Assembly (NCBI GenBank): GCA_020059045.1 | Contig: JAGVCW010000021.1 | Span: 27,821 to 91,820, forward strand | DNA from: Minisyncoccota bacterium | GTDB lineage: Bacteria > Patescibacteriota > Minisyncoccia > Phycocordibacterales > Zambryskibacteraceae | Length of the DNA stretch: 64,000 nucleotides | Direction: 5' to 3' | In this document: positions 6,640-61,186 of the stretch, piece after piece | Layout of the letters: every line of letters starts with the position of its first letter | Position numbering within the stretch: position 1 is the first letter of the stretch | Notes under the pieces: model-generated | Databases searched by the model: none | What the model saw: the letters and a program-made list of their open reading frames with translations, nothing else | Told to the model about the DNA's origin: nothing | Program-made: the position numbers and the translations under genes

Positions 6640-7026
6640 ATGCCCAAAGCAAAAATAAAAAAAGAAGCTCCTAAGAAAAAGAAAAGTGACTCCAAGGTGA
6701 GTAAGGCTAAAGAAGAGACTGTCTCAAAGCTACGTATTCGAGTCCGAGCCTATGAGTACAAAATTCTTGATGTATCTGTAAAGCAGATCATAGACACAGC
6801 ACTAAGGTTTGACGCCCAAGTGCTTGGTCCTATACCGCTTCCAACAGAAATCAAGAAATATACTGTCAATCGTTCCTCATTTGTGTACAAAAATGCGCGA
6901 GAGCAGTTTGAAATGAGGATTCATAAGCGATTGATAGATATAGTAAACCCTACTCCGAAGTTGATTGAGTCACTTACCAACTTGTCCCTTCCATCAGGAG
7001 TGAACATAGATGTGAAATTGATGTGA
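6640..7026 (+). CDS. rpsJ: 30S ribosomal protein S10 with ~30-aa Lys-rich N-terminal extension
   Basis: [15 protein letters not shown]...GPIPLPT core. N-terminus [26 protein letters not shown]. Confidence 0.93.
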
Positions 7027-7208: not shown

Positions 7209-7817
7209 GTGAAATTTATCCTCGCAAAAAAGAATAGAATGTCAGAAGTCTTTACTGAGAGTGGTTTGGTAATTCCTGTTACTATTCTTTCTGCTACTCC
7301 TATGGTGGTAACTCAGATGAAAGATGAGTCGACCGACGGGTACAAAGCTGTACAAGTAGGATTTGGTACACGCAGAGAAAAGAGAATAAACAAGGCGGTA
7401 AAAGGGCATACCAAGGAGCTTGGCAATTTTCTAAAGCTAAAAGAATTTCGCCTCAAGGATGATACATTTGTCCGCGGTGACAAGATAGATGTTTCTGTCT
7501 TTACTGCAGGAGATGTGGTTGAAGTCTCAGCCATTTCTAAGGGTAAAGGTTTCCAAGGTGTCGTGAAGCGCCACGGATTTGCCGGTGGTCCACGAAGTCA
7601 TGGGCAGAAACACTCAGAGCGTGAGCCAGGATCTATCGGCGGAGGATTGCGTACACATGTTCCGAAAGGTATGCGCATGGCAGGGCGAATGGGTGGCGAT
7701 CGTATAACCGTAAGGAATCTTAAAGTTGTCGAGGTTAATCCTACAGAGAATATTATTTTAGTTTCTGGCGCGGTGCCGGGGAGAAGAGGAACGATTGTCG
7801 AAATCAGAGGTAAATAA
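7209..7817 (+). CDS. rplC: 50S ribosomal protein L3
   Basis: GTG start. MKFILAKKNRMSEVFTESGLVIPVTIL...YKAVQVGFG matches L3 N-terminus. Confidence 0.93.
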   Translation: MKFILAKKNRMSEVFTESGLVIPVTILSATPMVVTQMKDESTDGYKAVQVGFGTRREKRINKAVKGHTKELGNFLKLKEFRLKDDTFVRGDKIDVSVFTAGDVVEVSAISKGKGFQGVVKRHGFAGGPRSHGQKHSEREPGSIGGGLRTHVPKGMRMAGRMGGDRITVRNLKVVEVNPTENIILVSGAVPGRRGTIVEIRGK

Positions 7818-7888: not shown

Positions 7889-8659
7889 ATGGACACAACA
7901 GTTTATAACCAAAAAGGTGATTCAGTAGGGAAGATTAAGATTCCTGAATCAGTTTTCGGCGTGAAGTGGAATTCTGACATGGTTCACCAAGTTGTGACGT
8001 CCATGACATCTAGTGCGCGCAGAAACACGGCTCATACAAAGACTCGTGGGGAAGTACGGGGAGGAGGCAAGAAGCCTTGGAAGCAGAAGGGTACAGGACA
8101 GGCTCGTCACGGCTCGACTCGTTCACCAATATGGGTAGGAGGAGGTGTGGCACACGGTCCAAGAAACGATAAGAATTATGATCGCAAGGTGAATCGCAAA
8201 ATGAAGACCAAGGCTCTGTTTGCTATACTTTCTAGAAAGCTAAGTGATGGAGAAATAATTTTTATAGATGCGATTACAATGGGAGAAGCGAAGACAAAGA
8301 ATGCAATCAATATTATTTCAAATTTGAGAAAAATTGAGGGTTTCGATAAGATCTTTAATAAAAAGAAAAACAGTGCTCTCATTACTCTTGGCGAGAAAGA
8401 CGATTCTATAACAAGAAGTTTTAAAAACATAGGGAACGTGAGTGTCGATGAAATTCGTAATATAAACCCAGTTACACTTTTAAATTACAAAGCTCTCATC
8501 ATTTTAAATCCAGAAGCGTCTCTTCGATTACTTGAATCAAGGCTTAAGCAGAAAGCTACAGGTGATGCAGAAGGAGTGATAAAGAAAAAGTTTACAGCTA
8601 AAAAGAAAGGAGCTACAACAAAGAAAAAAGTAGTAGCTGCAAAGCCAAAGTCTTTATAA
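7889..8659 (+). CDS. rplD: 50S ribosomal protein L4 with Lys-rich C-terminal extension
   Basis: ...RGGGKKPWKQKGTGQARHGS... L4 signature. Confidence 0.93.
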   Translation: MDTTVYNQKGDSVGKIKIPESVFGVKWNSDMVHQVVTSMTSSARRNTAHTKTRGEVRGGGKKPWKQKGTGQARHGSTRSPIWVGGGVAHGPRNDKNYDRKVNRKMKTKALFAILSRKLSDGEIIFIDAITMGEAKTKNAINIISNLRKIEGFDKIFNKKKNSALITLGEKDDSITRSFKNIGNVSVDEIRNINPVTLLNYKALIILNPEASLRLLESRLKQKATGDAEGVIKKKFTAKKKGATTKKKVVAAKPKSL

Positions 8660-8669
8660 CAACTCATTT

Positions 8670-9050
8670 ATGGCCCTATTTTCAAAAAAACCCAAAGAAA
8701 AAGTTAAGAAAGACTCTCCAAAGAGTGTTTCACCAGAAGGACCTGTCGCATCAATCGAAACGATGGGTGGTACATCTTTTGCCCATATTCTCTTGCAGCC
8801 ACGTATTACGGAGAAAGCATCTCTCAAGGCAGAGAGCAATAATGTTTATGTCTTTGAAGTAAGCCCTCGTGCGTCAAAAAGTGACATAAGGCAGGCAGTG
8901 AAAGAAATTTATAAAGTGTCTCCAGAAAAAGTTTCTGTCGCACGAATCCCAAGTAAAAGTATTGTGGTTCGTGGTAAGCAAGGTGTGCGATCAGGTGGCA
9001 AGAAAGCCTATGTGTACCTGAAGAAGGGAGAGAAGATAGAGGTAATTTAG
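8670..9050 (+). CDS. rplW: 50S ribosomal protein L23 (N-terminal extension)
   Basis: ILLQPRITEKAS...YVFEV...KV conserved L23 core. Confidence 0.9.
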   Translation: MALFSKKPKEKVKKDSPKSVSPEGPVASIETMGGTSFAHILLQPRITEKASLKAESNNVYVFEVSPRASKSDIRQAVKEIYKVSPEKVSVARIPSKSIVVRGKQGVRSGGKKAYVYLKKGEKIEVI

Positions 9051-9225: not shown

Positions 9226-10065
9226 ATGAAACATTACAAACCAACAACCAAATCGCGAAGACAGATGACCGGTATAGACTACGGGAAAGTTTTGACCGCG
9301 AAAGATCCTTTGAAAAGTCTTACTCATGGAACTAAGCGTGATGTAGGCCGCAACCACCATGGTCGTGTTACAACACGTCACAAGGGAGGTGGGCACAAGC
9401 GTCTTTTCAGAGACATTGATTTTACATACAACAAATTTGATATTCCATTCAAAGTTTTAACAGTAGAATACGATCCAAACAGAACTGGTTTCATTGGCAT
9501 TGTAGTCTACAAGGATGGAGAAAAGAGATATGTCTTACTCCACAAAGGAGCGCGTGTTGGTGATACCTATATAGTTTCAGCTAAGGCTCCAGAGACAGTG
9601 GGCAACCGCCTGCCACTTGGCAAAATCACAGTGGGTACTTTCGTGTACAACGTAGAAGTTAAACCTCGTGGAGGTGCAAGGCTTGCAAGAAGCGCAGGTA
9701 ACTACATAGAAGTTGTTGCAAAGGATGCAGGCTACGTGGATCTTAAAATGCCATCTACAGAAGTAAGAAAAGTTTTAGAGACTTGCTGGGCGACAATCGG
9801 TGAAGTATCAAACGATGAGAACAGACTAGTAAATATCGGAAAAGCTGGAAGAAGTCGCTGGCTTGGTATAAGGCCTACTGTTCGTGGTTCTGCTATGAAC
9901 CCAGTAGATCATCCACACGGTGGAGGAGAGGGTCGTTCAGGACGCGGACGACGTCGAGCAGTGAGTGCATTTGGCAAACCAACAGGCAAGGGGCAGAAGT
10001 CTCGTACTCCAAAGAAATATTCAAACAAATTTATTGTTCGTCGCAGAAAAGTAGGAAAGAAGTAG
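9226..10065 (+). CDS. rplB: 50S ribosomal protein L2
   Basis: MKHYKPTTKSRRQM..., HPHGGGEG motif. Confidence 0.95.
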   Translation: MKHYKPTTKSRRQMTGIDYGKVLTAKDPLKSLTHGTKRDVGRNHHGRVTTRHKGGGHKRLFRDIDFTYNKFDIPFKVLTVEYDPNRTGFIGIVVYKDGEKRYVLLHKGARVGDTYIVSAKAPETVGNRLPLGKITVGTFVYNVEVKPRGGARLARSAGNYIEVVAKDAGYVDLKMPSTEVRKVLETCWATIGEVSNDENRLVNIGKAGRSRWLGIRPTVRGSAMNPVDHPHGGGEGRSGRGRRRAVSAFGKPTGKGQKSRTPKKYSNKFIVRRRKVGKK

Positions 10066-10160
10066 GATGATAAAGAGTAACCTACGACCGACAACACTAC
10101 TGAGTGGAAGCCGAGCTTCCAAAAATGTCTGTATTTCTTGCATAGCAGTGTAAATAAAAA

Positions 10161-10182
10161 AGCCCCGCATGTTTATGGGGCT
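10161..10182 (-). terminator. Rho-independent terminator of the 10187..11155 gene
   Basis: - strand hairpin GCCCCATAAACATGCGGGGC followed by TTTTTT, immediately after its stop codon. Confidence 0.6.
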
Positions 10183-10186
10183 ACGG

Positions 10187-11155
10187 TTATACTGTATCAA
10201 GCACAGCTTGTATCTCTGCGGCCAGTGCATTGGCTTCAGCCGCGTCTCTACTCTCATTTTCCTCAAGTTGAGCAGAGTCAACTGGTACTTCTCCAGGCAG
10301 AAGTGCAAGTTCAGCAAGTCGCAAAGCACCCTCTCTACTCTCGGCTACGATTAGGTATCGGTTTTGGTGGCAAAACACGGCATCTCCTACCCCGGTGATT
10401 TCCTGAAGTTCAAGACCTCTCATACCTGCCCACTCTCTTGGTAACAAGCGAGGCGAAGTTGTATCAGTAGCTCTGTGCCAGCGTTTCACTGTCTGTACGA
10501 GCCAGCCGACCCTTTTGGGGTACACGACGAGGACTATTTCTGGGAAGTTTCTACTTACGTAGTGATCCCAACGGCATGAGTCATCAAGGAGTAAAACCTG
10601 TGGGCTTAAGTGCTTCTCTACAGCTCTCTTGACCACCTCTTCTCCTCGAATCTCTTCTTTTGCGCGGAAGATTGCACCACTTATGTTTGCTCGTGCAAAC
10701 GCAAGAGCAATATCCCAGTCACTTGGCTTAAATGTAGCTACTGCACTTGAAATGCTGTATGGCCGGATTTCACCAGCTTTGTATCTTACCAGAGTATACC
10801 TGTTGTCTGCCGCATCTATGGGTATAACCATGTGCCTCTCAATTTCTTCAGCTATCCGAGTGTCTTGAGCAATTCGCAGTCCGAAATGTTTCCATACAAG
10901 ACCGAAGGCAGCGTATGGAACACCATTTGCTCGTCTACCAGCACCTCCTTGCATATGGTGATCGAAGTCTAGAGTTTCTGGGTTGTACACTCCTCCTACA
11001 TCAATACGTACATTGCTTTCAGCTATTACTCTTGGATCGCGGCTACGCACCACAAGAGCTTCCATGTATTCCGGAAGCAATTGTAAGGCCGCGATCGCGT
11101 ACACCTCGTCTGCATGGATGGGTCCGTCGTGGGTCACAATTTGCACAGACAACAC
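10187..11155 (-). CDS. MYG1/UPF0160-family metal-dependent exonuclease
   Basis: THDGPIHADEVYAIAALQLLPEY N-terminus and DFDHH motif typical of MYG1. GC ~50%, above neighbouring r-protein genes. Opposite strand to the operon. Confidence 0.75.
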   Translation of the reverse strand: MLSVQIVTHDGPIHADEVYAIAALQLLPEYMEALVVRSRDPRVIAESNVRIDVGGVYNPETLDFDHHMQGGAGRRANGVPYAAFGLVWKHFGLRIAQDTRIAEEIERHMVIPIDAADNRYTLVRYKAGEIRPYSISSAVATFKPSDWDIALAFARANISGAIFRAKEEIRGEEVVKRAVEKHLSPQVLLLDDSCRWDHYVSRNFPEIVLVVYPKRVGWLVQTVKRWHRATDTTSPRLLPREWAGMRGLELQEITGVGDAVFCHQNRYLIVAESREGALRLAELALLPGEVPVDSAQLEENESRDAAEANALAAEIQAVLDTV

Positions 11156-11369
11156 CTCAAAATGGGAGTGAAATGCTTCTATAACAAAGGGCAGTACAAA
11201 ATACAGAGTACATATTTTTAGAAAATAGTCAAGATTTGCTAGATTTGCAATAAGTCTATGAGTTTATGGGTATTAGTTATTTTCTCACAATATAAGTGCT
11301 TATTTACTCCCAAAATATGGCCTAAGATAGCCCTTTTTGGGGATTTATGTAATTTAAATCAAAAAGTTC

Positions 11370-11397
11370 TTGACAAATAAATTGTATATGTTATACT
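11370..11397 (+). promoter_or_regulatory. Sigma70-like promoter for the 11480 gene
   Basis: TTGACA at 11370-11375, 16-nt spacer, TG-n-TATACT at 11392-11397. Confidence 0.5.
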
Positions 11398-11479
11398 ATA
11401 GGTAGTAGTAAGTAGTACATTTCAGTTGCAGTTCCCCGTTCAAGGTAGTCCACTCAGCACACCTTATGGAGGTATTACC

Positions 11480-12199
11480 ATGGCTAGCAAGAAGAAGCAG
11501 CAGGTAGCAACGAGCCCGGTTCCCAGCATGCAGGCCGCGGTTGCCACGATGGCGGAAGAGGCTCCCGCCGAGAGCAGGCAGTTCTCTTCGAGCCAGCCGA
11601 AGTGGTCCCCGACTCAGTTCATTGAGACCCTGGGGAAGATCAAGGAAGAACTCCCGGCCGCCGTGTCGAACTTCAAGATCGTGAAGAAGATCGTGGGTCT
11701 CGAGATGGACGGCAAGGATGAGATGGCCTTTCGGCAGATGATTCAGCTCGCCGGGGCCGTTGCTACCAAAGCATCCCAGAAGGCGGACGCGGAAGACCCA
11801 TCAAAGGTGTATCTGGATGCCAGGAAGGTCCAGGCTGCGCTCACCGCATGTGAGCGTGCCAATTCCAATCTGGCACGCACCTTCGACAGGTACATCGGGA
11901 ACTGGCGGAAGCGGGCTGACACCATGATGTCGAACGCAAGGCGCAAGGACCCGGACGTGATCGAGCGCGAGAGTGACACAATCGCGGACAACATGGAGGC
12001 ACTGGATGAGGCACTTGAAGGAAAGAAGCCTCGTCAAGAGGTCCTCGAGATCTACAACAGGACCTTCACCCATCTTCGCGAGCTCTCAAAGGAAGCAACG
12101 GCGCTTGCTACTGAAGCTTCGAGGAGAGAGCAGATCGAAACGATCGGCTCACTCGGGGACGACATCCTCGACTCTCTCGCGGAACTCGACAGCATCTAA
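11480..12199 (+). CDS. High-GC hypothetical alpha-helical protein
   Basis: ATG 11480 (MASKKKQQ...) with GGAGG SD. GC ~58% against ~40% in flanks. No recognisable family. Confidence 0.6.
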   Translation: MASKKKQQVATSPVPSMQAAVATMAEEAPAESRQFSSSQPKWSPTQFIETLGKIKEELPAAVSNFKIVKKIVGLEMDGKDEMAFRQMIQLAGAVATKASQKADAEDPSKVYLDARKVQAALTACERANSNLARTFDRYIGNWRKRADTMMSNARRKDPDVIERESDTIADNMEALDEALEGKKPRQEVLEIYNRTFTHLRELSKEATALATEASRREQIETIGSLGDDILDSLAELDSI

Positions 12200-12215
12200 G
12201 TGCTGCGAGCAGTAG

Positions 12216-12258
12216 TACCCCACGAAAAACCCCCAAGGTATCGTGGGGTTTTTCTTTT
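12216..12258 (+). terminator. Rho-independent terminator
   Basis: CCCCACGA...TCGTGGGG hairpin followed by TTTTTCTTTT. Confidence 0.65.
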
Positions 12259-12472
12259 ATTGCAATTGCGGAGAATACCATGACAGCTAGGCTGCATGGG
12301 ATGAATCCGCAAATACATACTATATGTCGGCGGAGCCGACTCCTCTTGCAACAAAGTTTGCCCTGATGCCTCGTCCTGCTACTCGCCGAGGCTTTGCGAG
12401 GGAATAGCTTACTGCGATTATAGGACGAGGCCAATTTTATTAAGATAATAATCTTTCCTGTATAATTTATAT

Positions 12473-13441
12473 ATGGAATACAAAACTATTATTTTGCCTA
12501 CTAGGCCTCAGGTGGATACTGTTATTTCTATATTCGTATTAAAGCACTTTGGTGAAAGTTTCTTCCCTGGTATTAAGACTGCTAGCTATGAGTTCATGTC
12601 CAACTTACCAGCTGGTGCGAGCGAAGAGAGCTTGGCAGAGGAAGGAAGGCTCCCAATAGATATTGGTGGTGGACGATTTGATCATCACAACAAAGAGGAG
12701 AAAACCACTGTTCTAAATCTTTTGACTAGCTTTCTTGCTCAAGGGAATAATCCTGCTTTAATAAAACTCAAGAAGTTTGTAGAAAGAGATGATTTTTATG
12801 GTAAAGGAATAATATCCTCTGACCCCCTTGATCGTGCTTTCGGTTTGCCCGGGCTTATTGCTTGTCTTAATAAAAAGTATTCAAGTAACCCAGCGAAAGT
12901 GCTGGATATAATTCTTCCAGTTGTTGATGCGTACTACGAAGAAGAAGAGAAGAGGGCAATAGGAATGCCTCTTGAACTTAAGGAGAAAATAGCAAATGGT
13001 AAAGCTAGAGTATTTAATACAGAGCAGAGAGGCAGAAAACTTAAATGCATTTTCATAGAAAGCGATAACATAAGTCTACCGGGTTTTCTTCGATCTAAGA
13101 TTGGAGGGGAGCACGATGTGATTGCAATAAGGCTATCGTCTGGACACACAAATATTCTTACGAGTCTCAAAAATACAGTTGATTTGCGTTCACTCGCAGT
13201 GCTTATTCGCTTACAAGAAGCCGAGGCGCGAGGTGTGAAGCTAGATGGAGTGCCGGAAGATTTAGCAGTACCGGGTAAAATCGATGAAGTACTTAATTGG
13301 TACTACGATACAGCTACTAACTCTTTACTAAATGGTGGTCCTAATCCAAGTGAGACCGACCCAACGGGAATAGCATCTTTCGAATTTGAAAAAATAATGG
13401 AAATAGGGCTCTCTGAGAAACTCTGGTCTCCATCACGATAA
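12473..13441 (+). CDS. MYG1/UPF0160-like paralog, low GC, N-terminal His motif replaced
   Basis: DIGGGRFDHHNKEE aligns with the DHH motif of the 10187 gene. N-terminal TRPQVDTV occupies the FHADE position. TATAAT lies 13 nt before the ATG, so the mRNA may be leaderless. Confidence 0.55.
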   Translation: MEYKTIILPTRPQVDTVISIFVLKHFGESFFPGIKTASYEFMSNLPAGASEESLAEEGRLPIDIGGGRFDHHNKEEKTTVLNLLTSFLAQGNNPALIKLKKFVERDDFYGKGIISSDPLDRAFGLPGLIACLNKKYSSNPAKVLDIILPVVDAYYEEEEKRAIGMPLELKEKIANGKARVFNTEQRGRKLKCIFIESDNISLPGFLRSKIGGEHDVIAIRLSSGHTNILTSLKNTVDLRSLAVLIRLQEAEARGVKLDGVPEDLAVPGKIDEVLNWYYDTATNSLLNGGPNPSETDPTGIASFEFEKIMEIGLSEKLWSPSR

Positions 13442-13564
13442 GCCAAATACCCTTTATATTAGCCACGTAATGGTCTATAAAAATCCTTGACTTTTATAGA
13501 CCATTATGCTATTATTATACAAGAACAGCAGTTTCACACACCGACCCTTTCACAAGGAGTTTGC

Positions 13565-14155
13565 ATGGTAAAAAGCAAGGAAGTCGTCGACCCCGCATTT
13601 GTCGGAGAAGTGGAAGCGGCGCTCGTGTACCTCACGGTGCCCGGCAATCTGAAGTATCTTATACCCGGGTGGGTAAAAGAGGCGGACTTCTCGAATACTC
13701 CAAAGTCCGAGCGCCAGATGGCCCCACGATCCGATAAGTTGTTCCAAGTTGCACAAGCGAGGATGGATGGGGTGCTCGGGGATCTTGCCGGCGCTGGTTT
13801 CCTCCCCTCTGAAGTGTTTTATCTGAATCGGGATGGTGGCGCGCGGCGGGTTCGTATCACATGCAAGCGCTTTGGCGCACCGCTGACACTCGATCAGGTG
13901 CAGTCTCTCATTCCCCTCACTACCGAGCGGATATGGGATGTGATGGCTCATCGGACGGCTGCTACCAGGAACATTCCATGGGAGCACATTTCGATCAATG
14001 CCGGACGCCCCGATCATGCTCCAGAAGGGGGATTCGAAGCGGTTCGCGTGGTCGAAGGTCGAGTCTCGGTAGTTTCCCTTCTCAACACGGACGAGCTGCG
14101 GAAGGCGTCTGAGTCCATCATCGGCCTCCTCGAATCGCTGCAGATAACACGCTAA
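13565..14155 (+). CDS. High-GC hypothetical protein
   Basis: ATG 13565 preceded by AAGGAG SD, in frame with ORF 13487..14155. GC ~58%. Confidence 0.55.
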   Translation: MVKSKEVVDPAFVGEVEAALVYLTVPGNLKYLIPGWVKEADFSNTPKSERQMAPRSDKLFQVAQARMDGVLGDLAGAGFLPSEVFYLNRDGGARRVRITCKRFGAPLTLDQVQSLIPLTTERIWDVMAHRTAATRNIPWEHISINAGRPDHAPEGGFEAVRVVEGRVSVVSLLNTDELRKASESIIGLLESLQITR

Positions 14156-14349
14156 TCCTCCTTGCGATAACAGGGGGGTCAACGAGCCAGACAGAAATGT
14201 CTGGCTCTTTTCTATTTAATTGACAACAAGTGTCTATTTCTATAATATCTTGAGAAGCTCATCCGAGCTTTTTGTATTCTAATTTTAGTTTTAGTAGCTG
14301 GGCAGGAGTAACCCTTCGACGAGCTCAGGGTAAAAATCTAAAGATTTTT

Positions 14350-14709
14350 GTGACACGATCATCAAAAAAAGGCCCCTATGTATATGAGCGCCTTCTGAAG
14401 AAAATTGAAGGCAAAAAGCCCGAGCAAGCTGGGGTTATTAAGACATGGGCAAGGGACAGCCAGATCGCTCCCGAGATGGTTGGCTACACATTTGGAGTAC
14501 ATAATGGTAAGGATCATATTGAAGTTTTTGTAACTGAAGACATGGTGGGTCATAGACTCGGCGAATTCTCACCTACACGTAAGTTCGTTAAACATGGCGG
14601 TAAGATGCAGAAAGAACTTGAGCAGAAGAAGAAAGAATCAGAAATAGCATCTGCTCAAGCGGCCAAAGCCTCTGTAAGTGCAGGAGCAAATACAGTACCG
14701 GCGAAGTAG
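14350..14709 (+). CDS. rpsS: 30S ribosomal protein S19 (C-terminal Lys/Ala-rich extension)
   Basis: GTG 14350 gives [11 protein letters not shown]..., the canonical S19 N-terminus. [29 protein letters not shown] core. The alternative ATG 14272 would add an unconserved 26-aa leader. Confidence 0.85.
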
Positions 14710-14813
14710 CTTAAATGTTCTAAGTGTTGTATGTGTTATACATGTCATACAACTTCAACAATTCAAACAAATAAAACAACTAGAACATCTATAACAATTA
14801 AAACCGCGAATTT

Positions 14814-15212
14814 ATGAGCGAAATAACTGCACAACTAAATGATTACAGACAGGCACCTCGTAAGGTGCGAGTTGTTGCAGGTCTTGTAAGAGGCAAGTCG
14901 GTCAAAGATGCTTTGGTGTCACTTGAATTTTTGCCTAAGCGTGCAGCAGATCCAATCTCAAAGCTTATAAGATCAGCGGTTGCAAACGCTCGATCTCAGA
15001 ACATTGAAACCGAGAATCTTATTCTAAAGGAACTACGTGTAGACGGAGGAAAAATATTATATCGAAGACGCAGCGCATCCCGCGGCCGAGCACCAGCTAT
15101 ACGAAAGAGGACAAGCCACATTCTCGTTGTCTTATCGGAAGACACCAAGAAGAAGTTGAAAAAGCAAAATGCAAAAAGTAAAAGTAATTCAGACGTAAGC
15201 GCTAAAAAATAA
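14814..15212 (+). CDS. rplV: 50S ribosomal protein L22
   Basis: MSEITAQLNDYRQAPRKVRVVAGLVRGKSV... Confidence 0.92.
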   Translation: MSEITAQLNDYRQAPRKVRVVAGLVRGKSVKDALVSLEFLPKRAADPISKLIRSAVANARSQNIETENLILKELRVDGGKILYRRRSASRGRAPAIRKRTSHILVVLSEDTKKKLKKQNAKSKSNSDVSAKK

Positions 15213-15248
15213 TTTTAAATTTTGATTTTTAAATTTTAATTTATATTC

Positions 15249-15929
15249 ATGAGTCATACAGTTCACCCATTTTCACACAGACTAGGTATCATAAGAGATT
15301 GGAGATCTCGATGGTTTGGTACAAAGAAGAATTACAAAGAATTTCTTCGCGGTGATCTTTTGATACGAGCATTTCTAGAAGGAAAGCTTCGTGGTATGTA
15401 CGTAAGTACTATTGAAATCGAGCGTAATGAAAAAGTTCTGCGCATTATAGTTGAGACTTCTCGACCCGGTATGATCATTGGTCGTAGTGGCGATGGAGCA
15501 GTCCGGCTCAAAGACCAGATCGTAGCCATGCTTCGCCGAGAGAAGGTGGGTCGTGCTAACGAAGAGGTTCGTCTCGATATTAAGGAGGTTAGATCTCCAG
15601 AATCAAATGCTCACATTGTTTCTCAGATGATAGGAGAGGGACTTGAGAAAAGACTTCCATACAGAAGAGTTGTGAAGCAAATGGTAGAAAAGGTTATGGC
15701 CAATCGTGATGTGAAAGGGGTAAAGGTAACTGTTGCAGGAAGACTCGGGGGCGCAAGTATTGCACGATCAGAGACAAGAAAGCTTGGTAGAATTCCTCTT
15801 CAGACATTTCGTGCTGATGTAGAGTTCGCACGGCACGAAGCTCGTCTCCCATATGGCAATCTGGGTATAAAAGTTTGGATTTACAAAGGTGACATTTTCT
15901 CCACCAAGGTTGGTGGAGAAAAGTCATAA
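15249..15929 (+). CDS. rpsC: 30S ribosomal protein S3
   Basis: MSHTVHPFSHRLGIIRDWRSRWF..., KH domain. Confidence 0.95.
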   Translation: MSHTVHPFSHRLGIIRDWRSRWFGTKKNYKEFLRGDLLIRAFLEGKLRGMYVSTIEIERNEKVLRIIVETSRPGMIIGRSGDGAVRLKDQIVAMLRREKVGRANEEVRLDIKEVRSPESNAHIVSQMIGEGLEKRLPYRRVVKQMVEKVMANRDVKGVKVTVAGRLGGASIARSETRKLGRIPLQTFRADVEFARHEARLPYGNLGIKVWIYKGDIFSTKVGGEKS

Positions 15930-15956
15930 TTGTTCTACTTGTTATAGTTGTTCTAT

Positions 15957-16325
15957 ATGTCAGAGAGATTTCAAGGATATAGGTTTGAAAAATTGGAAGT
16001 TTGGCAGGTGGGAATGCGTATAGTAAGTAAGGTATATTCAATTACGAAAAGGTTTCCTAAAGACGAGACCTACGCCCTGTCTGACCAGTTAAAAAGAGCA
16101 GCCACTTCGATAGTTTTAAACTTGGCAGAAGGCTCAGGACAGCCAACAAAAAAGTTATTCTCTCTTTATATTGAACGTGCCAAGTCCTCAACACTTGAAT
16201 GTGTGGCTTGTACAAAAATTGCTGTTCAGGAAAAACTTGTAGAACCTGATGAGGTTAAATCTTTGGAAGAGCTACTTGCGGAAGAGTATTTTAAACTTAT
16301 TGCGCTAGCAAAATCTATGAGGTAA
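15957..16325 (+). CDS. Four-helix-bundle protein (23S rRNA intervening-sequence protein family, TIGR02436/PF05635-like)
   Basis: FEKLEVWQVGMRIVSKVYSITKRFPKDETYALSDQLKRAATSIVLNLAEG matches the family consensus (FE.L.vWQka..l...iy..t..FPk.E.y.L.sQ.rRAa.S...NIAEG). Confidence 0.75.
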   Translation: MSERFQGYRFEKLEVWQVGMRIVSKVYSITKRFPKDETYALSDQLKRAATSIVLNLAEGSGQPTKKLFSLYIERAKSSTLECVACTKIAVQEKLVEPDEVKSLEELLAEEYFKLIALAKSMR

Positions 16326-16396
16326 GATCTTCCTACTCTAGCTTGTAACCTATCTAACACCTATAACAACTAGAACATATATAACACTTACAACCA

Positions 16397-16813
16397 ATGC
16401 TTTTCCCAAAAAAAGTAAAATATCGAAAATGGCACACTATGCGCAAGAACCCCAAGAAGGTGGGTTCTGCTACTCGTGGTATAGAAGTTAACTTCGGATC
16501 CTATGGTCTGAAAGCTCTTGAGTATGGCCGTATTAAGTCGAACCAGATTGAGTCAGCAAGAAAGGTTATGTCTCGCTCACTCGGAAAGACTGGCAAGATT
16601 TGGATCAGGATTTTCCCAGACATGCCATACACAGCGAAACCTGCCGAAGTTAAGCTCGGTAAAGGAAAAGGTGATCTCCAAGGTTACGTCGCTCCAGTTC
16701 ACGCAGGCAGAGTACTTTTTGAAGTAGATGGAGTAACGGAGGCTGTGGCAAGAGAGTCGCTCCGTAAAGCAGGAACAAAGCTACCAGTGAAAACAAGGAT
16801 AGTGGCTAGGTAA
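16397..16813 (+). CDS. rplP: 50S ribosomal protein L16
   Basis: MLFPKKVKYRKWHTMRKNPKK... Confidence 0.95.
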   Translation: MLFPKKVKYRKWHTMRKNPKKVGSATRGIEVNFGSYGLKALEYGRIKSNQIESARKVMSRSLGKTGKIWIRIFPDMPYTAKPAEVKLGKGKGDLQGYVAPVHAGRVLFEVDGVTEAVARESLRKAGTKLPVKTRIVAR

Positions 16814-16903
16814 ATAGCGCTTGTTGTAAATGATGTATATGTTCTAAGTGTCTGACAAATACAACATCTACAACATTTAAAAACATTTACAACAAAATAT
16901 AGT

Positions 16904-17095
16904 ATGTCTAAGGAACTCAAAGAAAAAAACGAAAAGGAATTAAGTAAAATGCTTGCGGATAATCAAGAGAATTTACGCTCTTTTCGATTTGGTATCGCAG
17001 GTTCGAAGAATCGCAATGTGAAAGAGGGACGGGCAATTCGCAAAGACATTGCAAGGATCCAAACTGAGATGAGTGCTCGCAAGAAGGCTAAATAG
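16904..17095 (+). CDS. rpmC: 50S ribosomal protein L29
   Basis: MSKELKEKNEKELSKMLADNQENLRSFRF... Confidence 0.88.
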   Translation: MSKELKEKNEKELSKMLADNQENLRSFRFGIAGSKNRNVKEGRAIRKDIARIQTEMSARKKAK

Positions 17096-17142
17096 ACAAG
17101 AGTCTGAAAATATGTAGTATAAACACACTAACTTATAGAGAG

Positions 17143-17382
17143 ATGAGTGCAATATCCACAAAAAATAAAGAATTTACAGGTACAGTAGTGTCAGACAAAA
17201 TGAAAGACACGATTGTTGTTAGTGTGGAGAGGTTTACGAAGCACCCTCGTTACGGCAAGTACATCCGAAGCCGTCGTAAGTTCAAGGTTCACGATGTAGG
17301 AAATACGAAAAAGATTGGAGAAAAAGTAGTATTCATTGCTTGTCGCCCAATTTCAAAAGATAAGAGATTCAGAGTTATTTAA
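17143..17382 (+). CDS. rpsQ: 30S ribosomal protein S17
   Basis: FTGTVVSDKMKDTIVVSVERFTKHPRYGKYIRSRRKFKVHD. Confidence 0.92.
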   Translation: MSAISTKNKEFTGTVVSDKMKDTIVVSVERFTKHPRYGKYIRSRRKFKVHDVGNTKKIGEKVVFIACRPISKDKRFRVI

Positions 17383-17558
17383 GGAGCTTGGCGACTATAA
17401 ATAACCTGACCCCCCATCATTTTTAACAATGAAACCTGAAACATTAAAAAAAGATATTGAAAAACATTTCTATTATAGTATCCGATGAAACATATTTTAA
17501 AAATGATGAGGGATGGTGATTTTCAAAAACTCACTATCGCTCGTTAAGAAAATCAACC
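17383..17558 (+). promoter_or_regulatory. Family-1 structured spacer upstream of rplN
   Basis: TGACCCCCCATCATTTTT ... AAAAATGATGAGGGATGG IR, then CTCACTATCGCTCGTTAAGAAAATCAACC-ATG. Confidence 0.55.
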
Positions 17559-17930
17559 ATGATCCAACCCCGCTCAATAGTAAAAATAGCAGACAACTCA
17601 GGCGCCAAAATCGGTAGAGTTTTCAAGGTGCTTGGTGGGTCTAAGAAGAGATACGCACGTATTGGTGATGTGGTGGTATTGTCGGTTCAGGTAGCACAAC
17701 CTAGAAAGTCAGTGAAAAAGAAAGACATTTTGTACGCGGTGGTAGCACGTCAGAGAACACCATTTCGCAGACAAGATGGTTCCTACATTCGTTTCGATGA
17801 GAATGCAGTGATAATTGTTGATAAAGCAAAGCACGAGCCTATCGCAGGACGTGTTTTCGGACCGATCCCAAGAGAGCTTGGCGAGATGGGATTCCAGCAG
17901 GTAATATCATTAGCACAAGAGGTAGTTTAG
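17559..17930 (+). CDS. rplN: 50S ribosomal protein L14
   Basis: MIQPRSIVKIADNSGAK... Confidence 0.95.
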   Translation: MIQPRSIVKIADNSGAKIGRVFKVLGGSKKRYARIGDVVVLSVQVAQPRKSVKKKDILYAVVARQRTPFRRQDGSYIRFDENAVIIVDKAKHEPIAGRVFGPIPRELGEMGFQQVISLAQEVV

Positions 17931-18149
17931 AAAATCAAGGAGTGAAACGACTATGATTTACTTAACCCCACCTAAATTTTGCATCGAAGACAGAAGCGCA
18001 GTGCGCGGCCGAGTAGGCCAAGCGGTCATGGGCGAAGCGCTGCGCCTCGAAAGGTTTGTGACTATTCGTCACTCGCACTTCTTGTGGTAATGTAAAAGCA
18101 AAATTTAGGCGGGGTCATGATTTTCCAATCGCTCCGCTCAAAAAAATCA
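17931..18149 (+). promoter_or_regulatory. Family-1 structured spacer upstream of rplX, with GC-rich insert
   Basis: ACTTAACCCCACCTAAATTTT ... AAAATTTAGGCGGGGTCATGATTTTCCAATCGCTCCGCTCAA 15-bp IR, plus a GC-rich hairpin at 18005-18055. Confidence 0.55.
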
Positions 18150-18455
18150 ATGAAAATAAAAAGGGATGACAACGTAATAGTGATAGGAGGCAAGGACAGA
18201 GGCAAAACTGGTAAAGTTTTGCGTGCTTTTCCTCGTGAATCGAAAGTTGTCATCTCGGGCGTAAACTTGAAAAAACTTCATAAGCGTCCCACAAAATCCG
18301 GGCAGAAGGGACAAGTCGTTGAGCAAGCTGCACCCATACATGTATCAAATGTTATGATTGTGGATCCAAAATCTGGGAAGAGAACAAGAGTTCTACGCAA
18401 GATGGAAGGAGACAAGAAAGTCAGAGTAGCAAAAAGTAGCGGCACCACGCTGTAA
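18150..18455 (+). CDS. rplX: 50S ribosomal protein L24
   Basis: ATG 18150 gives MKIKRDDNVIVIGGKDRGKTGKV, the canonical L24 N-terminus. Confidence 0.9.
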   Translation: MKIKRDDNVIVIGGKDRGKTGKVLRAFPRESKVVISGVNLKKLHKRPTKSGQKGQVVEQAAPIHVSNVMIVDPKSGKRTRVLRKMEGDKKVRVAKSSGTTL

Positions 18456-18532
18456 AGTTATAAATGTTGTAATTGTTGTAGTGTCAGACATTTATAACAT
18501 CTACAACATTTAGAACAATTTCAACATACAAA

Positions 18533-19081
18533 ATGCAAAGCATAAAAGAAAAAACTCAAAAAACGTTTTCATCACTTAAGGCCACTCGTGGTTATAAAAA
18601 TCCCATGCAATCTCCACGTATTGTCAAAGTTGTTGTGAGTGTAGGAACGGGCTCATTTAAGGATGCGAAGAAAAAGGAACTTGCCCTGGATCGTCTTACG
18701 AAGATTACCGGCCAGCGCCCATCAGTACGCGGTGCAAAGCAGTCAATTGCCGCATTTAAAGTCCGACAGGGAGACCCGGTAGGACTTGCAGTCACACTTC
18801 GTGGCAAGAGAATGTACGATTTTCTAGATAAGTTAATCCATGTGGCCCTACCTCGTACCAAGGACTTCAGAGGAGTATCTTCTAAAGCTATTGATAAGAT
18901 GGGCAATTACACTCTAGGTATTAAGGAGCACACTATTTTCCCAGAGACAGCAGACGAGGAACTTAAAGACGTTTTTGGGCTAGCAATAACAATAGTTACG
19001 ACCGCAAGAACGAAGGAGGAGACCAAAGAATTTCTAGATTATCTAAGTTTCCCTTTCAAAAAAACAGAAGAGAAGAAGTAA
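18533..19081 (+). CDS. rplE: 50S ribosomal protein L5
   Basis: RIVKVVVSVGTG...KITGQRP...TLRGKRMYDFLDKLI. Confidence 0.95.
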   Translation: MQSIKEKTQKTFSSLKATRGYKNPMQSPRIVKVVVSVGTGSFKDAKKKELALDRLTKITGQRPSVRGAKQSIAAFKVRQGDPVGLAVTLRGKRMYDFLDKLIHVALPRTKDFRGVSSKAIDKMGNYTLGIKEHTIFPETADEELKDVFGLAITIVTTARTKEETKEFLDYLSFPFKKTEEKK

Positions 19082-19184
19082 ATCCGTGGAAGCGAAGCGT
19101 GGAAGCCGAGCTTCCACGGAACATACTGTGTTCAGAATCTTTAAATGCTTGTAAACTTCATATAAATTTGTTTCTATAATAGAT

Positions 19185-19391
19185 ATGACAGAAGAATCAC
19201 TAAACTTAAACGAGACAAAGGAGAAGAGCGCGTTTTCCATGGGCGATCATTCAGATTTTATTGCAAGAGAGCTTGACCAAGTGAATAGGGAGTTACTCGA
19301 TGTAAGTTTAGACATACCAGATGGGGAGGTATCAGGTTTGGAAGAAGTGTATGATGCGATGATAAGGGATCTAAAAATCGAAAATAAATAA
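19185..19391 (+). CDS. Small acidic hypothetical protein
   Basis: 68-aa ORF inside the operon, between rplE and rpsN. Confidence 0.4.
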   Translation: MTEESLNLNETKEKSAFSMGDHSDFIARELDQVNRELLDVSLDIPDGEVSGLEEVYDAMIRDLKIENK

Positions 19392-19410
19392 TTCAAGTTC
19401 TCACTTTCGT

Positions 19411-19752
19411 ATGAACAAATTTTTATCTTTAGTAACGCGTATTCTGGGTGAGCTAGAATTTTCGCAAGAAAACAAAGAAAAAGTTGCATATGATCTCAAT
19501 CGCCTAATTATGACAAAGGTTGTCATAGCACTTCTTGATGAGGCCCCAGAGAATGTTCAAACTGAAGTTGAAAAACTTTTAAGTGCTGGTGAAACACTTG
19601 AAGTTGCAAATATCCTCAAGTCTACATTTACGACTGAAAGATTCGAAGAAGTAAGCCTTCATATTACTCGAGATGTGGTTCACAAATACTTAAGCGAATT
19701 GTTTGCAAAAACTCACAAGGAAAACAAAGAGAAACTTGTCGCTTCACTCTAA
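19411..19752 (+). CDS. Small hypothetical protein
   Basis: 113-aa ORF followed by hairpin TGTGCTGGGCTCTAATAGCACA plus T-run. Confidence 0.45.
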   Translation: MNKFLSLVTRILGELEFSQENKEKVAYDLNRLIMTKVVIALLDEAPENVQTEVEKLLSAGETLEVANILKSTFTTERFEEVSLHITRDVVHKYLSELFAKTHKENKEKLVASL

Positions 19753-19794
19753 TATTTGTGCTGGGCTCTAATAGCACAGTACTTTTGTATAAAA

Positions 19795-20085
19795 ACAAAC
19801 CCGCTCCTTGGTGAGGGCGGGCGATAGTGGGAAGAAAACTTCCAATGGTTTGGAAACTGCATGAAACCGGGTACTTCCTCCCTTTGTCTAGTCAATGGCG
19901 ATTGGGCGCCTATGACATCCTCTTGGCTGTAAACCTCGTAACTCACCATGAGTTACGGCAGGCTAACGCCAACTAAGCTGAGGACTTCGACTGGGCTGTC
20001 TCTGCACGTGGTCCCGAATGAGACGCCTAGTGAGCGAATGACCCGAACGCAGACTACCCGGTTTCACACTTTGTAATGAACTTAT
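19795..20085 (+). ncRNA. Candidate RNase P RNA-like structured ncRNA (rnpB-like), with a related downstream GC-rich segment to ~20300
   Basis: No ORF. GC-rich. GAAACCGGGTA (19859-19869) is the exact reverse complement of TACCCGGTTTC (20057-20067), a P4-like pseudoknot. 3' segment GCCTAGTGAGCGAATGACCCGAACGCAGACTACCCGGTTTCAC resembles E. coli M1 RNA GCCUAGAUGAAUGACUGUCCACGACAGAACCCGGCUUAUC (CR-V). Local hairpins throughout. Confidence 0.4.
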
Positions 20086-20592
20086 ATCTTGCACTCTCTT
20101 TCGAGAGATGATTTCGTACCCTGGGGCGGCGAGCGGGCCGAAGCGCCGTCACGACCCCAGGGACTTCCTCGATATTTAACCTCTGATGCCGAGTACCGCA
20201 TCGGAGGCGATCCCCGTTAGGACGTAAGCGAATGCACCGGTTTAGGGCACATCACTGTATCCGAGCCCGCATGGGGGAGCTTGTGAGCTTATGTATATTA
20301 TAGCATGTACACGTTATTTGTCAAGGAGTTTCTCATTATCTTTTCTGTGACACATGAAATATGGCTAAAACTAAGGCTTATTTGAATATCACTTTAAAGT
20401 AGAGGGAAATTTGTTGGCAAGTTCTTGAAATTATCCGCTTAACCCTTATTTTATTGACTTTATACGGCTCAATTGCTAAGCTGTTGCAAAGCTTTTGGAA
20501 GCTTTTTTCTTTACTTAATCGCTTCATTCGTCAATATTCTTCCTTTTGAGGGCTTTCGCTCATGCGAGGTCGCTAGAGGATAAACAATATTT

Positions 20593-20778
20593 GTGGCCAA
20601 GAAATCAGTTATAGCAAGATCAGTTAAAAAGCCTAAATTCTCGACTCGCATCGTGAGGCGTTGTTTCCGTTGTGGTCGAAAGCGTGGCTATATGCAAGAT
20701 TTTGATCTATGTAGAATATGTTTTCGCGAATTTGCAAATGAAGGCAAAATCCCGGGCGTTAAGAAATCAAGTTGGTAA
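20593..20778 (+). CDS. rpsN: 30S ribosomal protein S14 type Z (zinc-binding)
   Basis: 61 aa with CFRCGR...CRICFRE Cys pairs. Confidence 0.92.
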
Positions 20779-20881
20779 TAAAAGATTGTTCTAGATGTTG
20801 TAATTGATATACATGTTATAAATGTCTGACAAATACAACAACTAAAACATTTTGAAACAAATATAACATCTCAAACATTAC

Positions 20882-21265
20882 ATGGATCCCATCGCTGACA
20901 TGATAATAAGAATCAAGAATGCAGGAGAATCCCGCAAGGATACAGTGGCTTTTCCATATTCAAATTTGAAAGCAAGCATCTGCAAAACTCTTCTAGATAG
21001 TGGATACATAAAATCTCTTGTTATAAAAGGGAAGATTGCCAAATCAATAGAAGTCGGACTTATTTACAACGGCAAGTTCCCAAAGATCCAAGGTGTGAAG
21101 AGACTTTCGAAGCCTTCTCGTCGTCTATACAAGGCCTCAAGTGATCTACGGCCGGTTAAGAGAGGGTATGGATCTCTCATCATGTCTACTCCGAAGGGAA
21201 TAATGGTAGGAGAGCATGCCCGTAAGTCTAAAGTCGGTGGTGAGGCATTATTTGAAATATGGTAA
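20882..21265 (+). CDS. rpsH: 30S ribosomal protein S8
   Basis: MDPIADMIIRIKNAG... Confidence 0.95.
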   Translation: MDPIADMIIRIKNAGESRKDTVAFPYSNLKASICKTLLDSGYIKSLVIKGKIAKSIEVGLIYNGKFPKIQGVKRLSKPSRRLYKASSDLRPVKRGYGSLIMSTPKGIMVGEHARKSKVGGEALFEIW

Positions 21266-41155: not shown

Positions 41156-41242
41156 CCTGAGGGTGTTTTTGCTATTTCGCTCCCAGGTGGTTTACCACGA
41201 GCGAGCCTTCGACCTGGCTCAGGCCAGGGCGAAGCGAGTCGA

Positions 41243-41678
41243 GTGGAGATGGGCGGAATCGAACCGCCGTGCAATAGAAGAGATGAAAGATTTCTACAAG
41301 AGGTAGTTTGTTTCAATCTGCCTGTTGGCAGATATTTAGACTCTGTAAGTATGGAACAAACAAAATCTTACAAAGTCGAGCTTCTACATTTCGGAAACAA
41401 GCAAAGCAATTTGTTTCCAGAGTCTCAAGTTATTACGCGAGCAACTTGTTATGAGACATCACAAGTGCTAACGTCGCTTAGGCCGACCCAGACACCGAAG
41501 TGTCGGGTTAAGAGGCGTAAACGAAAGCGAAATCCTTAGCTCCAAAATATGGAGAAACTAGAGACCCAGCTTTTGCGACAATGCTGTTTGCAATTATCGG
41601 TTGTGGCGGATTTAAGAGTCACCACAGCTCTCCCTTGCATCTATCAAATGAATTCTACTGTCTAGGCCGATCATCCCC
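41243..41678 (-). ncRNA. ssrA: Transfer-messenger RNA (tmRNA)
   Basis: - strand 5' end GGGGATGATCGGCCTAGACAG matches the tmRNA 5' consensus. 3' end GGCGGTTCGATTCCGCC-CATCTCC-A forms the T-arm and acceptor. Acceptor stem pairs with a G3-U70 wobble, the Ala identity element. Internal candidate tag ORF starts GCA AAC (A-N...). smpB lies 350 bp away. Confidence 0.8.
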
Positions 41679-41746: not shown

Positions 41747-42019
41747 CTAATTGTTACGCCCTATTTTGTCTAAATATTTCTTTAGTATTTTCTTTTTTTC
41801 TCTTGCTGACCACAATGTCTTAAGAAAACGCTCCCTTTGGAATGCATCTGACTTGTCTAAGTATTTTTCTTGGTGAATAACAACAAGAGGTCTGCGCGAT
41901 CTAGTAGAAAGTACTTTTCCACTATTGTGCGCTTGAATTCTTTTTTGTATATTCTTCGTGCATCCAACATAGAGCCCACTGTCTTTGGTACTAAGCAATA
42001 TGTATACAAAATAGTGCAT
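41747..42019 (-). CDS. GIY-YIG nuclease domain protein (UPF0213-like)
   Basis: YFVYILLS...GLYVGCT...RIQAHN GIY-YIG motif. Confidence 0.8.
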   Translation of the reverse strand: MHYFVYILLSTKDSGLYVGCTKNIQKRIQAHNSGKVLSTRSRRPLVVIHQEKYLDKSDAFQRERFLKTLWSAREKKKILKKYLDKIGRNN

Positions 42020-48801: not shown

Positions 48802-48875
48802 GTCCACCCTCCACGATTTGAACGTGGGACCCTCGAGGTATAAGCTCGATGCTCTAACCAACTGAGCTAAGGGTG
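48802..48875 (-). tRNA. tRNA-Ile, anticodon TAT (UAU)
   Basis: - strand cloverleaf: acceptor CCACCCT/AGGGTGG, D-arm GCTC/GAGC, anticodon arm TCGAG-CTTATAC-CTCGA, T-arm CCACG-TTCAAAT-CGTGG. 74 nt, no encoded CCA. Confidence 0.75.
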
Positions 48876-49053
48876 GTATAGCGCTCAAATACTATATCAA
48901 ATATGGAAATCCTTCAATTATTACAGTCGTGCGGTTAAGTGTCCCAGCTATCCACAACGTGAGTATTCACATTGTTATAACCTAAGGGTATACTTCTAAT
49001 CAAGTTGCGGTCCTGTCTTGAAACCTTATTTATTCTTAACTTCTCTTAATAAT

Positions 49054-61096: not shown

Positions 61097-61186
61097 TGGC
61101 GGAGAGAGTGGGATTCGAACCCACGGTTCCGGTAAAGGAACGACGGTTTAGTAAACCGTTGATTTAAACCACTCATCCATCTCTCC
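61097..61186 (-). tRNA. Type II tRNA, Ser-like, with anticodon ACT
   Basis: - strand: acceptor GGAGAGA/TCTCTCC, discriminator G, encoded CCA, 3-bp D-stem, anticodon arm ACGGT-TTACTAA-ACCGT, long variable arm GTTCC...GGAAC, T-arm GTGGG-TTCGAAT-CCCAC. Confidence 0.7.

Follow-up and report, generated by a model that had tools for sequence, protein, structure and literature searches.

A probably old, clade-wide gap in the S10 ribosomal protein cluster of Patescibacteria with a predicted DHH-type phosphoesterase and GC-rich partner genes

In a 64-kb segment of Patescibacteria DNA (42.4% GC; the whole stretch is called the window), the S10-spc ribosomal protein cluster lies on the plus strand and is interrupted between rplB and rpsS by 4284 bp (10066-14349) with four genes, a MYG1/UPF0160 gene and the genes named here P2, P3 and P4. 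We consider it probable, at roughly 0.6, that this interval is an old gap of the S10 cluster shared across a clade of Parcubacteria (Minisyncoccia/Paceibacteria-type Patescibacteria), containing a P3 phosphoesterase module with structured partner mRNAs, and not a recent mosaic insertion. The window would then show its own genome's version of the shared gap, with P2, P3 and P4 as the conserved core, followed by rpsS under its own promoter, and the module would occupy a break of the ribosomal cluster that is prone to rearrangement. In this explanation P3, a relative of MYG1 that kept the DHH motif and lost the N-terminal histidines, may take part in the processing of RNA ends or RNA breakdown products, presumably together with the true MYG1, a predicted 3'-5' exonuclease, and P2 and P4 would be fast-evolving orphans, each forming its own transcription unit and keeping G/C-ending codons among orthologs.

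The end of rplB at 10065 and the start of rpsS (GTG) at 14350 delimited the interval exactly, in agreement with an original prediction, made from the letters alone, that 4.3 kb splits the two genes. The features of the interval, with GC content at third codon positions given as GC3, were as follows.

9226-10065, plus strand: rplB (uL2), open reading frame (ORF), 72-76% identical to rplB of relatives, last gene before the gap
10154-10181, minus strand: putative intrinsic terminator of the MYG1 gene, hairpin GCCCC..GGGGC and T-run, read from the sequence
10187-11155, minus strand: MYG1/UPF0160 gene, 322 aa, GC 0.49, GC3 0.40, PF03690 at 1.2e-50
11370-11397, plus strand: P2 promoter TTGACA-16-TGnTATACT, 11/12 consensus matches, TG present, segment GC 0.17
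11480-12199, plus strand: P2, 239-aa helical orphan, GC 0.58, GC3 0.72, Shine-Dalgarno (SD) site GGAGG 8 nt upstream
12218-12258, plus strand: P2 intrinsic terminator, CCCCACGA..TCGTGGGG and T-run, conserved in loci L005 and L078
12459-12466, plus strand: extended -10 element TGTATAAT, 6 nt before the P3 ATG, no SD site
12473-13441, plus strand: P3, 322 aa, predicted phosphoesterase of DHH/DHHA1 fold (from fold and motifs), GC 0.40, GC3 0.32
13455-13519, plus strand: hairpin with 31-nt arms, 3' of P3, with the -35 box of P4 in its loop
13487-13515, plus strand: P4 promoter TTGACT-17-TGnTATTAT, by motif
13565-14155, plus strand: P4, 196-aa orphan, GC 0.57, GC3 0.61, orthologs always between P3 and rpsS
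14184-14217, plus strand: P4 intrinsic terminator, 10-bp stem and T-run, by motif
14220-14248, plus strand: rpsS own promoter TTGACA-17-TAATAT, by motif
14350-14709, plus strand: rpsS (uS19), PF00203 at 1e-33, N-terminus in agreement with relatives; the ribosomal cluster resumes

Both GC-rich genes of the original prediction were recovered as described, the first (58% GC) with its promoter and intrinsic terminator within 11370-12258 and the second at 13565-14155.

The genomic contexts of P3 were collected by exact look-ups and by a scan of one genome per species, and loci (labelled L001 and so on) were taken as close relatives when their P3 was at least 54% identical and as distant Parcubacteria when it was at most 53% identical. 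P3 was located between rplB and rpsS in every close relative with enough flank, namely L001 (557-kb contig), L002, L006, L008, L014 and the P0004 contig. The order P3-P4-rpsS was present in L001-L004, L006-L008, L078, L083 and the P0004 contig, and P4 orthologs were found directly 3' of P3 in L001-L004 and L006-L008 by an iterative hidden Markov model search of all locus ORFs and in L078, L082 and L083 by look-ups. P2-family genes were placed directly 5' of P3 by BLAST clustering (L004_123-734, L005_8772-9362 and L078_1135-1755), and the best P2 homolog in L080 (GC3 0.82) was situated between a channel gene and the position of P3 in relatives, on a contig that starts with rplJ-rplL and ends just short of P3. 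The layout of a terminator followed by a promoter before rpsS was also seen in L078 and L083, and the counterpart of the hairpin after P3 in L082 (1-60) had arms that differ in sequence and are still complementary. The usual gap of the relatives was larger and ran from rplB through variable genes, rplJ, rplL, a 185-aa gene, a channel gene matching Pfam MS_channel_1st_1 (PF05552), P3 and P4 to rpsS; the place of MYG1 was occupied there by rplJ-rplL, a winged-helix-like gene and the channel gene. None of rplJ, rplL, the 185-aa gene and the channel gene was detected within the 64-kb window. The window version is therefore derived; this block is gone, and MYG1 is present on the opposite strand.

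P2 and P4 had the two highest GC3 values of 66 ORFs (median 0.37, standard deviation (sd) 0.074), and in a windowed GC check of the kind proposed with the original prediction, no 300-bp segment of the 64 kb had a higher GC than those in P2 and P4. GC was 0.17-0.31 in promoters, 0.45-0.52 in leaders and 0.57-0.67 in coding segments, and the rise was limited to transcribed units. At third positions, G and C (G3 and C3) were both raised equally, and A3 went down to 0.00. Among orthologs, GC3 was 0.58-0.95 for P4, 0.72-0.95 for P2 and 0.30-0.49 for P3, at a locus GC of 0.42-0.51 and a background GC3 of 0.3-0.4. In L078, the nearest assembled relative (P3 68% identical), the order was a PF05552-type channel gene, a 160-aa gene (GC3 0.78), a P2-family gene (0.95, A3 0.00), P3 (0.33) and P4 (0.95), and each GC-rich gene had TTGACT-17-TATxAT as its promoter and ended in a CCCCACGA..TCGTGGGGTTTT terminator that hardly differs from that of the window. 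The GC contrast of P2 and P4 is a conserved gene property, and among the features of the locus this codon bias, kept among orthologs, is the most surprising one. The original prediction had attributed the contrast to horizontal acquisition into a native paralog locus, which is contradicted by the same order and GC3 bias in all close relatives sampled; uniform composition in relatives of the same gene content had been named as the sign against it, and the content (P2, P3 and P4) was shared, but the composition was equally non-uniform there. Because synteny and composition are conserved and the rise is transcript-bounded and symmetric for G and C, recent horizontal acquisition can be set aside as the source of the contrast, and the same facts speak against a mutational bias of the region or of one strand. 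Strand-specific mutation such as deamination was ruled out by the equal rise of G3 and C3.

P3 gave no Pfam or NCBIfam match at E<0.1 and no sequence match in PHROGs, PADLOC or PDB, and PF03690 was absent from P3 and from all of its 120 best homologs. With BLASTP, P3 and the neighbouring MYG1 protein shared only 12/41 identities, around D.GG..FDHH (E 0.016). With hhalign, P3 matched a MYG1 profile of 6 local sequences at 84% probability (E 7e-6) over 138 columns in the N-terminal half only, and Q13/D15 of P3 were paired with H14/D16 of MYG1 and the FDHH motif of one with that of the other. In the N-terminus of P3 (LPTRPQVDT), H9/H14/D16 of MYG1 correspond to R11/Q13/D15, so both histidines are replaced and the Asp is kept; the loss of the N-terminal catalytic His motif had been noticed correctly in the original prediction. 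The search retrieved 378 P3 homologs, and the best 120 of these were 48-100% identical over the full length; among these 120, every homolog with a source name was from Patescibacteria, and no Pfam domain was annotated in the P3 region. The 120 sequences had 30 invariant and about 75 near-invariant positions, and the conserved residues included D63, D70-H71-H72, R105-D107, G110/G112, D117, D120, N227 and W276...N283-S284..N287-G288. For the Asp-His-His of superfamily motif III and the acidic metal ligands of motifs I, II and IV, D70-H71-H72, D63, D117 and D120 were invariant and D15 was at least 90% conserved, and both domains of the DHH plus DHHA1 fold were recognized. These results suggested that P3 is best regarded as a remote superfamily relative of MYG1 in a separate family, not a paralog in the ordinary sense, and we infer that it is a metal-dependent phosphoesterase. 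The two MYG1-family paralogs of the original prediction were thereby reduced to one true MYG1 (10187-11155).

The main functional argument came from longer forms of P3. Among the best 120 of the 378 homologs, 54 (about 45%) were at least 440 aa long; an N-terminal extension with two HxT/S motifs, as a 2H domain, was present in at least 49 of these 54, and many of the long homologs carried precomputed PF02834, PF13563 or PF08302 matches. The P3 of L024 showed a weak C-terminal match to the CPD profile (E 0.002, 18.1 bits, below the Pfam cut-off of 23), which hints that the 2H fusion may exist in either order. The P3 of the window has no 2H domain and starts at the DHH-like domain. Neither a ligase nor a kinase was seen as a partner near P3, and metagenome scans with P3 returned one distant locus only. 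Because the N-terminal 2H fusion is recurrent, P3 and a 2H cyclic phosphodiesterase may share a target, either RNA ends with a 2',3'-cyclic phosphate or a 2'-5' linkage or the breakdown products of RNA. Judged from the fold and the fusions, its substrates are likely to be RNA ends or small RNA breakdown products, such as 2',3'-cyclic or 3'-phosphate ends and short oligoribonucleotides. An extended -10 element (TGnTATAnT) was located 6-10 nt before the P3 ATG, with no SD site, in the window and in L003-L006, L008 and L078, suggesting that the P3 mRNA may be leaderless or near-leaderless. Patescibacteria generally lack nucleotide synthesis. The P3 family is large, unnamed and very strongly conserved in Patescibacteria, and it is a candidate for RNA-end healing or for the salvage of RNA-derived nucleotides.

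The gene at 10187-11155 was verified as MYG1/UPF0160, as originally claimed, by a PF03690 match of 173.3 bits (cut-off 22.1) over the full profile (1-318 of 318) and by a match to the MYG1 structure 24ah of PDB (1.8e-24). It contains THDGPIHADE (T-H-x-G-x-x-H-x-D/E) and DVGGVYNPETLDFDHH (D.GG...FDHH), and T8, H9, H14, D16, D52, D65, H66 and H67 were invariant in the local MYG1 alignment. Its GC of 0.49 is due to amino-acid content, and its GC3 of 0.40 is native-like. At the rplB-rpsS site, MYG1 was private to the window genome among the sampled loci. In five other, distant loci it was found at most 3.4 kb from P3, directly downstream in L024 and L053, divergent at a distance of 68 bp in L070, and upstream in L037 and L054; all 6 MYG1 genes in the 78 loci, the window included, were that near P3. 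Such recurrent proximity speaks for a functional link, or for an ancient duplication whose copies stayed together. Metagenome scans gave no match for MYG1.

P2 and P4 are orphans with few relatives. Pfam, NCBIfam, PHROGs and PADLOC returned only marginal matches for both. Of the four proteins, for which the original prediction had proposed a Pfam search, 10187-11155 matched MYG1 and P3 had no match; against the PADLOC defence systems no significant match was obtained for the four gap proteins, with P2 marginal only (E 0.003-0.008). An exhaustive search of 1.84 billion representative proteins retrieved only 3 homologs of P2, one of them syntenic, and the P2 family numbers 8 members, all of them directly 5' of P3; a k-mer seeded search yielded only 3-5 proteins for P4, even with a profile. 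Scans of viral contigs and phage tblastn for P2, P3 and P4 were empty, the P4 alignment being too variable for a pattern scan. The GC-rich cassettes had promoters with both -35 and -10 boxes, AGGAG sites, and leaders rich in C and A, 50-90 nt long; for P2 and P4 themselves the leader measured 50-80 nt and carried an SD site. Compared with an 86% identical ortholog, P4 showed 18/13/63 differences at the three codon positions (54 synonymous and 27 non-synonymous codons), and this pattern marks it as a real protein gene. The P4-family motif Y.T.P...IP.W(V/L) was N-terminal in the window, L001, L002 and the L078 type; in L003, L004 and L006-L008, VR.AFN.YPD...IPSWV..RP was found at the C-terminus, which looks like a circular permutation within the family.

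The association of P3 with GC-rich genes extended beyond the clade. In loci of at least 8 kb, a GC-rich window (400 bp, at least 0.10 over the locus median GC) was found within 1.3 kb of P3 in 35/66 Parcubacteria loci (53%), compared with 13% at control positions, drawn at random from the same loci at distances above 3 kb; the binomial p of 9e-15 overstates independence, as the loci were chosen via P3 and are phylogenetically related, and this tells against our explanation. The GC3-rich neighbours of P3 belonged to at least 8 unrelated families. One of these was a degenerate P3 paralog without FDHH (GC3 0.78-0.85; hhalign to P3 97%, E 8e-11), found directly 5' of the AT-rich P3 in L010 (2444-3544), L019 (2157-3209) and L064 (1401-2420). 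In L033 (2229-3317) and L049 (8554-9306), the GC-rich gene beside P3 encodes a cold-shock-domain protein (PF00313 2.4e-6), another RNA-binding neighbour, and in Yanofskybacteria the orphan genes 5' of the 2H-P3 gene had GC3 of 0.74, 0.50 and 0.47 against a background of 0.33-0.42. Nothing was found in the literature on such loci or on GC3-rich genes in Patescibacteria.

The folding of each coding region was compared with that of 30 permuted versions in which protein, codon usage and GC3 were unchanged. The mean z of 16 GC-rich cassette genes was -1.72, with 15/16 negative, compared with a mean of 0.01 (sd 1.09) for 24 ordinary genes (Mann-Whitney p 3e-5); for the P2 mRNA, z was -2.97 against synonymous shuffles. 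Since the folds exceed those of synonymous shuffles and the GC rise is bounded by transcripts, we infer selection on the RNA itself, for stable, nuclease-resistant or long-lived messages, and not a foreign origin. Translational selection was unlikely as the cause, because the ribosomal proteins and EF-Tu had ordinary GC3. The full-length antisense ORFs in the GC-rich genes, such as 13550-14182 on the minus strand, were by-products of A3/T3 depletion in the codon-aligned antisense frame.

Several other results count against an old gap held with its codon bias. The folding z-scores were moderate, and the polarised third-position changes (16 S>W and 11 W>S) were too few to tell an equilibrium from a slow decay. 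The subclade to which the window belongs had a GC3 of 0.60-0.64, below that of other relatives. The pairwise identities of P3 and P4 were uncorrelated (Spearman 0.08, with identity inflated by short local alignments), and the P4 of L001 grouped with a different subclade than the P3 of L001; some exchange of P4 alleles or cassettes is possible. A further step would be that the P3 family, with MYG1, degrades RNA or processes its ends, and that the G/C-ending, structured messages of its companions survive or stay decodable while the enzyme, or a linked attack on RNA or tRNA, is active. We regard this as speculative and rather doubtful. If true, it would be a design of nuclease-proof messages that holds GC3 at 0.6-0.95 in genomes of 42-50% GC across speciation. 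We know of no earlier case of synonymous-site selection this strong that is gene-specific and follows one enzyme family through a phylum.

The low correlation between P3 and P4 is also what would be seen if the site beside P3 were a hotspot at which moron-like units are repeatedly swapped from a GC-rich gene pool shared among Patescibacteria. The content beside P3 does vary, with P2 present or absent and extra units in L078, L080, L008 and L014, different cassettes end in near-identical terminators, and unrelated GC-rich families stand beside P3 in distant lineages. However, no GC-rich donor pool was found, the P2 and P4 families are confined to one small clade and keep their positions, and the GC-rich degenerate P3 paralog suggests that the bias can arise in place, so we hold such exchange to be an unlikely explanation.

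The position of the genes had also been read, in the original prediction, as a hint at ribosome biogenesis. MYG1 and P3 would then trim rRNA 3' ends, and their location would reflect co-regulation with ribosome synthesis. Eukaryotic MYG1 is a DHH-superfamily 3'-5' RNA exonuclease whose targets are mitochondrial transcripts and rRNA (Grover et al. 2019, PMC6582341), and ribosomal genes, rplJ-rplL among them, surround P3 in this clade. The flavour of RNA metabolism was borne out by MYG1, the DHH-type phosphoesterase and the 2H/CPD fusions; the hint from position was weak, as MYG1 at this site is private to the window genome and most Parcubacteria have P3 well away from the S10 cluster, which in distant loci is usually not within 10 kb. 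In L024 and L033, distant loci with a broken rplB-rpsS junction (2.9 kb and 0.7 kb), P3 was not inside the break. Moreover, the gap genes each have their own promoter and terminator and rpsS has its own promoter, with no sign of co-transcription. This proposal seems improbable; it concerns the substrate only and is compatible with an old P3 module in the gap.

A recent transfer of two GC-rich genes into a native MYG1-paralog locus, as a mosaic insertion, would fit the GC and GC3 of P2 and P4, which deviate more than those of any other gene in the 64 kb, and their private promoters and terminators, as in phage morons. It is largely refuted by the orthologs with the same bias at the same positions in all close relatives, and it has very little left in its favour: the 1.84e9 representatives contained no donors and only the three P2 homologs, searches among phages and viruses yielded no relatives, the AT-rich promoters look native, and the gap borders showed no terminal repeats, integrase or tRNA. 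The marks of a horizontally acquired genomic island (absence in relatives, border repeats with integrase or tRNA, and donor homologs outside) were therefore not seen here. That the site is a recombination hotspot in which gene conversion biased to GC, or some other mutational bias of the region, raises GC locally was judged to be hardly more than a marginal possibility. The rplB-rpsS gap is rearrangement-prone, since rplJ-rplL, Cas1, GIY-YIG and MYG1 genes come and go, and the GC-rich genes are fast-evolving; but the lowest GC3 (0.32) is that of the centrally placed P3, and promoters and spacers stay at 0.17-0.36 GC, whereas a regional process should not respect gene borders. That the GC-rich stretches are structured non-coding RNA genes with ORFs as by-products is brought to mind by the frequency of RNA genes among GC-rich islands of AT-rich genomes and by folds more stable than shuffles, but as a sole explanation it is refuted by strong three-base periodicity with GC3 far above GC2, the 18/13/63 differences, protein-level homology reaching 1e-42 and 9e-34, the SD sites and the lack of any Rfam match in 10000-21000 at E<=1. 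A double role, as message and as functional RNA, is still conceivable.

The remaining part of the S10 cluster in the window was read as follows, upstream of the gap.

6640-7026, plus strand: rpsJ
7209-7817, plus strand: rplC
7889-8659, plus strand: rplD
8670-9050, plus strand: rplW

After rpsS, the cluster continued with rplV, rpsC, rplP and onwards. A second interruption, between rpsC and rplP, was a 23S_rRNA_IVP/four-helix-bundle gene at 15948-16325 (plus strand; PF05635 5.5e-27, TIGR02436), which was absent from L001 and L002. In the spc part, 19800-20290 (plus strand), about 500 nt at 0.57 GC between a 113-aa ORF and rpsN, had no ORF longer than 66 aa, an RNA fold z of -4.24 against dinucleotide shuffles and no Rfam match at E<=1, with weak three-base periodicity at 19820-20090; this leaves two readings, an unknown RNA with structure or a GC-rich cassette that has decayed. 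On the minus strand, 48802-48876, 61097-61186, 41241-41678 and 41768-42010 were assigned, in this order, to tRNA-Ile(TAT), tRNA-Ser, tmRNA and a GIY-YIG gene. ARAGORN called the tRNA-Ser with the unusual anticodon ACT, and the GIY-YIG gene, which adjoins the tmRNA gene, was 51% identical to the GIY-YIG gene preceding rpsS in L002.

In the relatives, rplJ-rplL was found inside the rplB-rpsS gap of L001 (2932-3877), L002 (4883-5794), L080 (256-1172) and the P0004 contig, an unusual merger of two ribosomal operons. The 185-aa gene (L001 4400-4960; also in L002, L006, L008 and L080), absent from the window, matched the PADLOC phage-defence candidate PDC-M05A at 4e-18. The gap of L002 also contained Cas1 and YbjQ genes, and its GIY-YIG gene stood just before rpsS.

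A sharp GC contrast and private promoters within a near-universal operon resemble a fresh transfer, and comparison with relatives corrected this tempting misreading by showing an old, maintained property. The phylum-wide tie of an AT-rich P3 to GC3-rich, extra-structured, fast-evolving orphans provides a natural setting in which selection on synonymous sites and on mRNA structure could be tested in bacteria.

Compared with the canonical S10 operon (rpsJ-rplC-rplD-rplW-rplB-rpsS-rplV-rpsC-rplP-rpmC-rpsQ), the window has all genes in the standard order on one strand, but its cluster is broken at rplB|rpsS (4.3 kb), rpsC|rplP and rplE|rpsN (1.5 kb), and the rplB|rpsS gap of the relatives even contains rplJ-rplL. 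The gene at 10187-11155 is a full-length member of MYG1/UPF0160 (PF03690, PMC6582341) with the N-terminal H..H.D/E and FDHH motifs, in a family whose exonuclease activity is known for eukaryotic MYG1 only. P3 shares with that family the DHH motif and apparently a remote profile similarity of the N-terminal half, but it fails the Pfam model and has its own invariant set, RDD.YGKG and WYYD.ATNS..NGG. The DHH/DHHA1 phosphoesterases, i.e. NrnA, PggH, the catalytic domain of GdpP, family II pyrophosphatase, PPX1 and RecJ, are among the nearest known systems to P3. The 2H phosphoesterases are represented by LigT (PF02834/PF13563) and the CPD of the fungal tRNA ligase Trl1 (PF08302), and such a domain is N-terminal in about 45% of the P3 homologs. 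Phage morons, associated with the names of Juhala and Hendrix and with lambdoid phages, are reportedly promoter-gene-terminator units of deviant composition between conserved genes. P2, P4 and their sister cassettes likewise consist of a single gene with a sigma-70-type promoter, an intrinsic terminator and a composition unlike that of the neighbours, and P2-type units are likewise present or absent between the same flanking genes. Unlike morons, P2 and P4 are chromosomal, in a ribosomal protein cluster with no prophage and no phage matches, and they are orthologous and syntenic across species, with a deviant composition that is maintained and not decaying.

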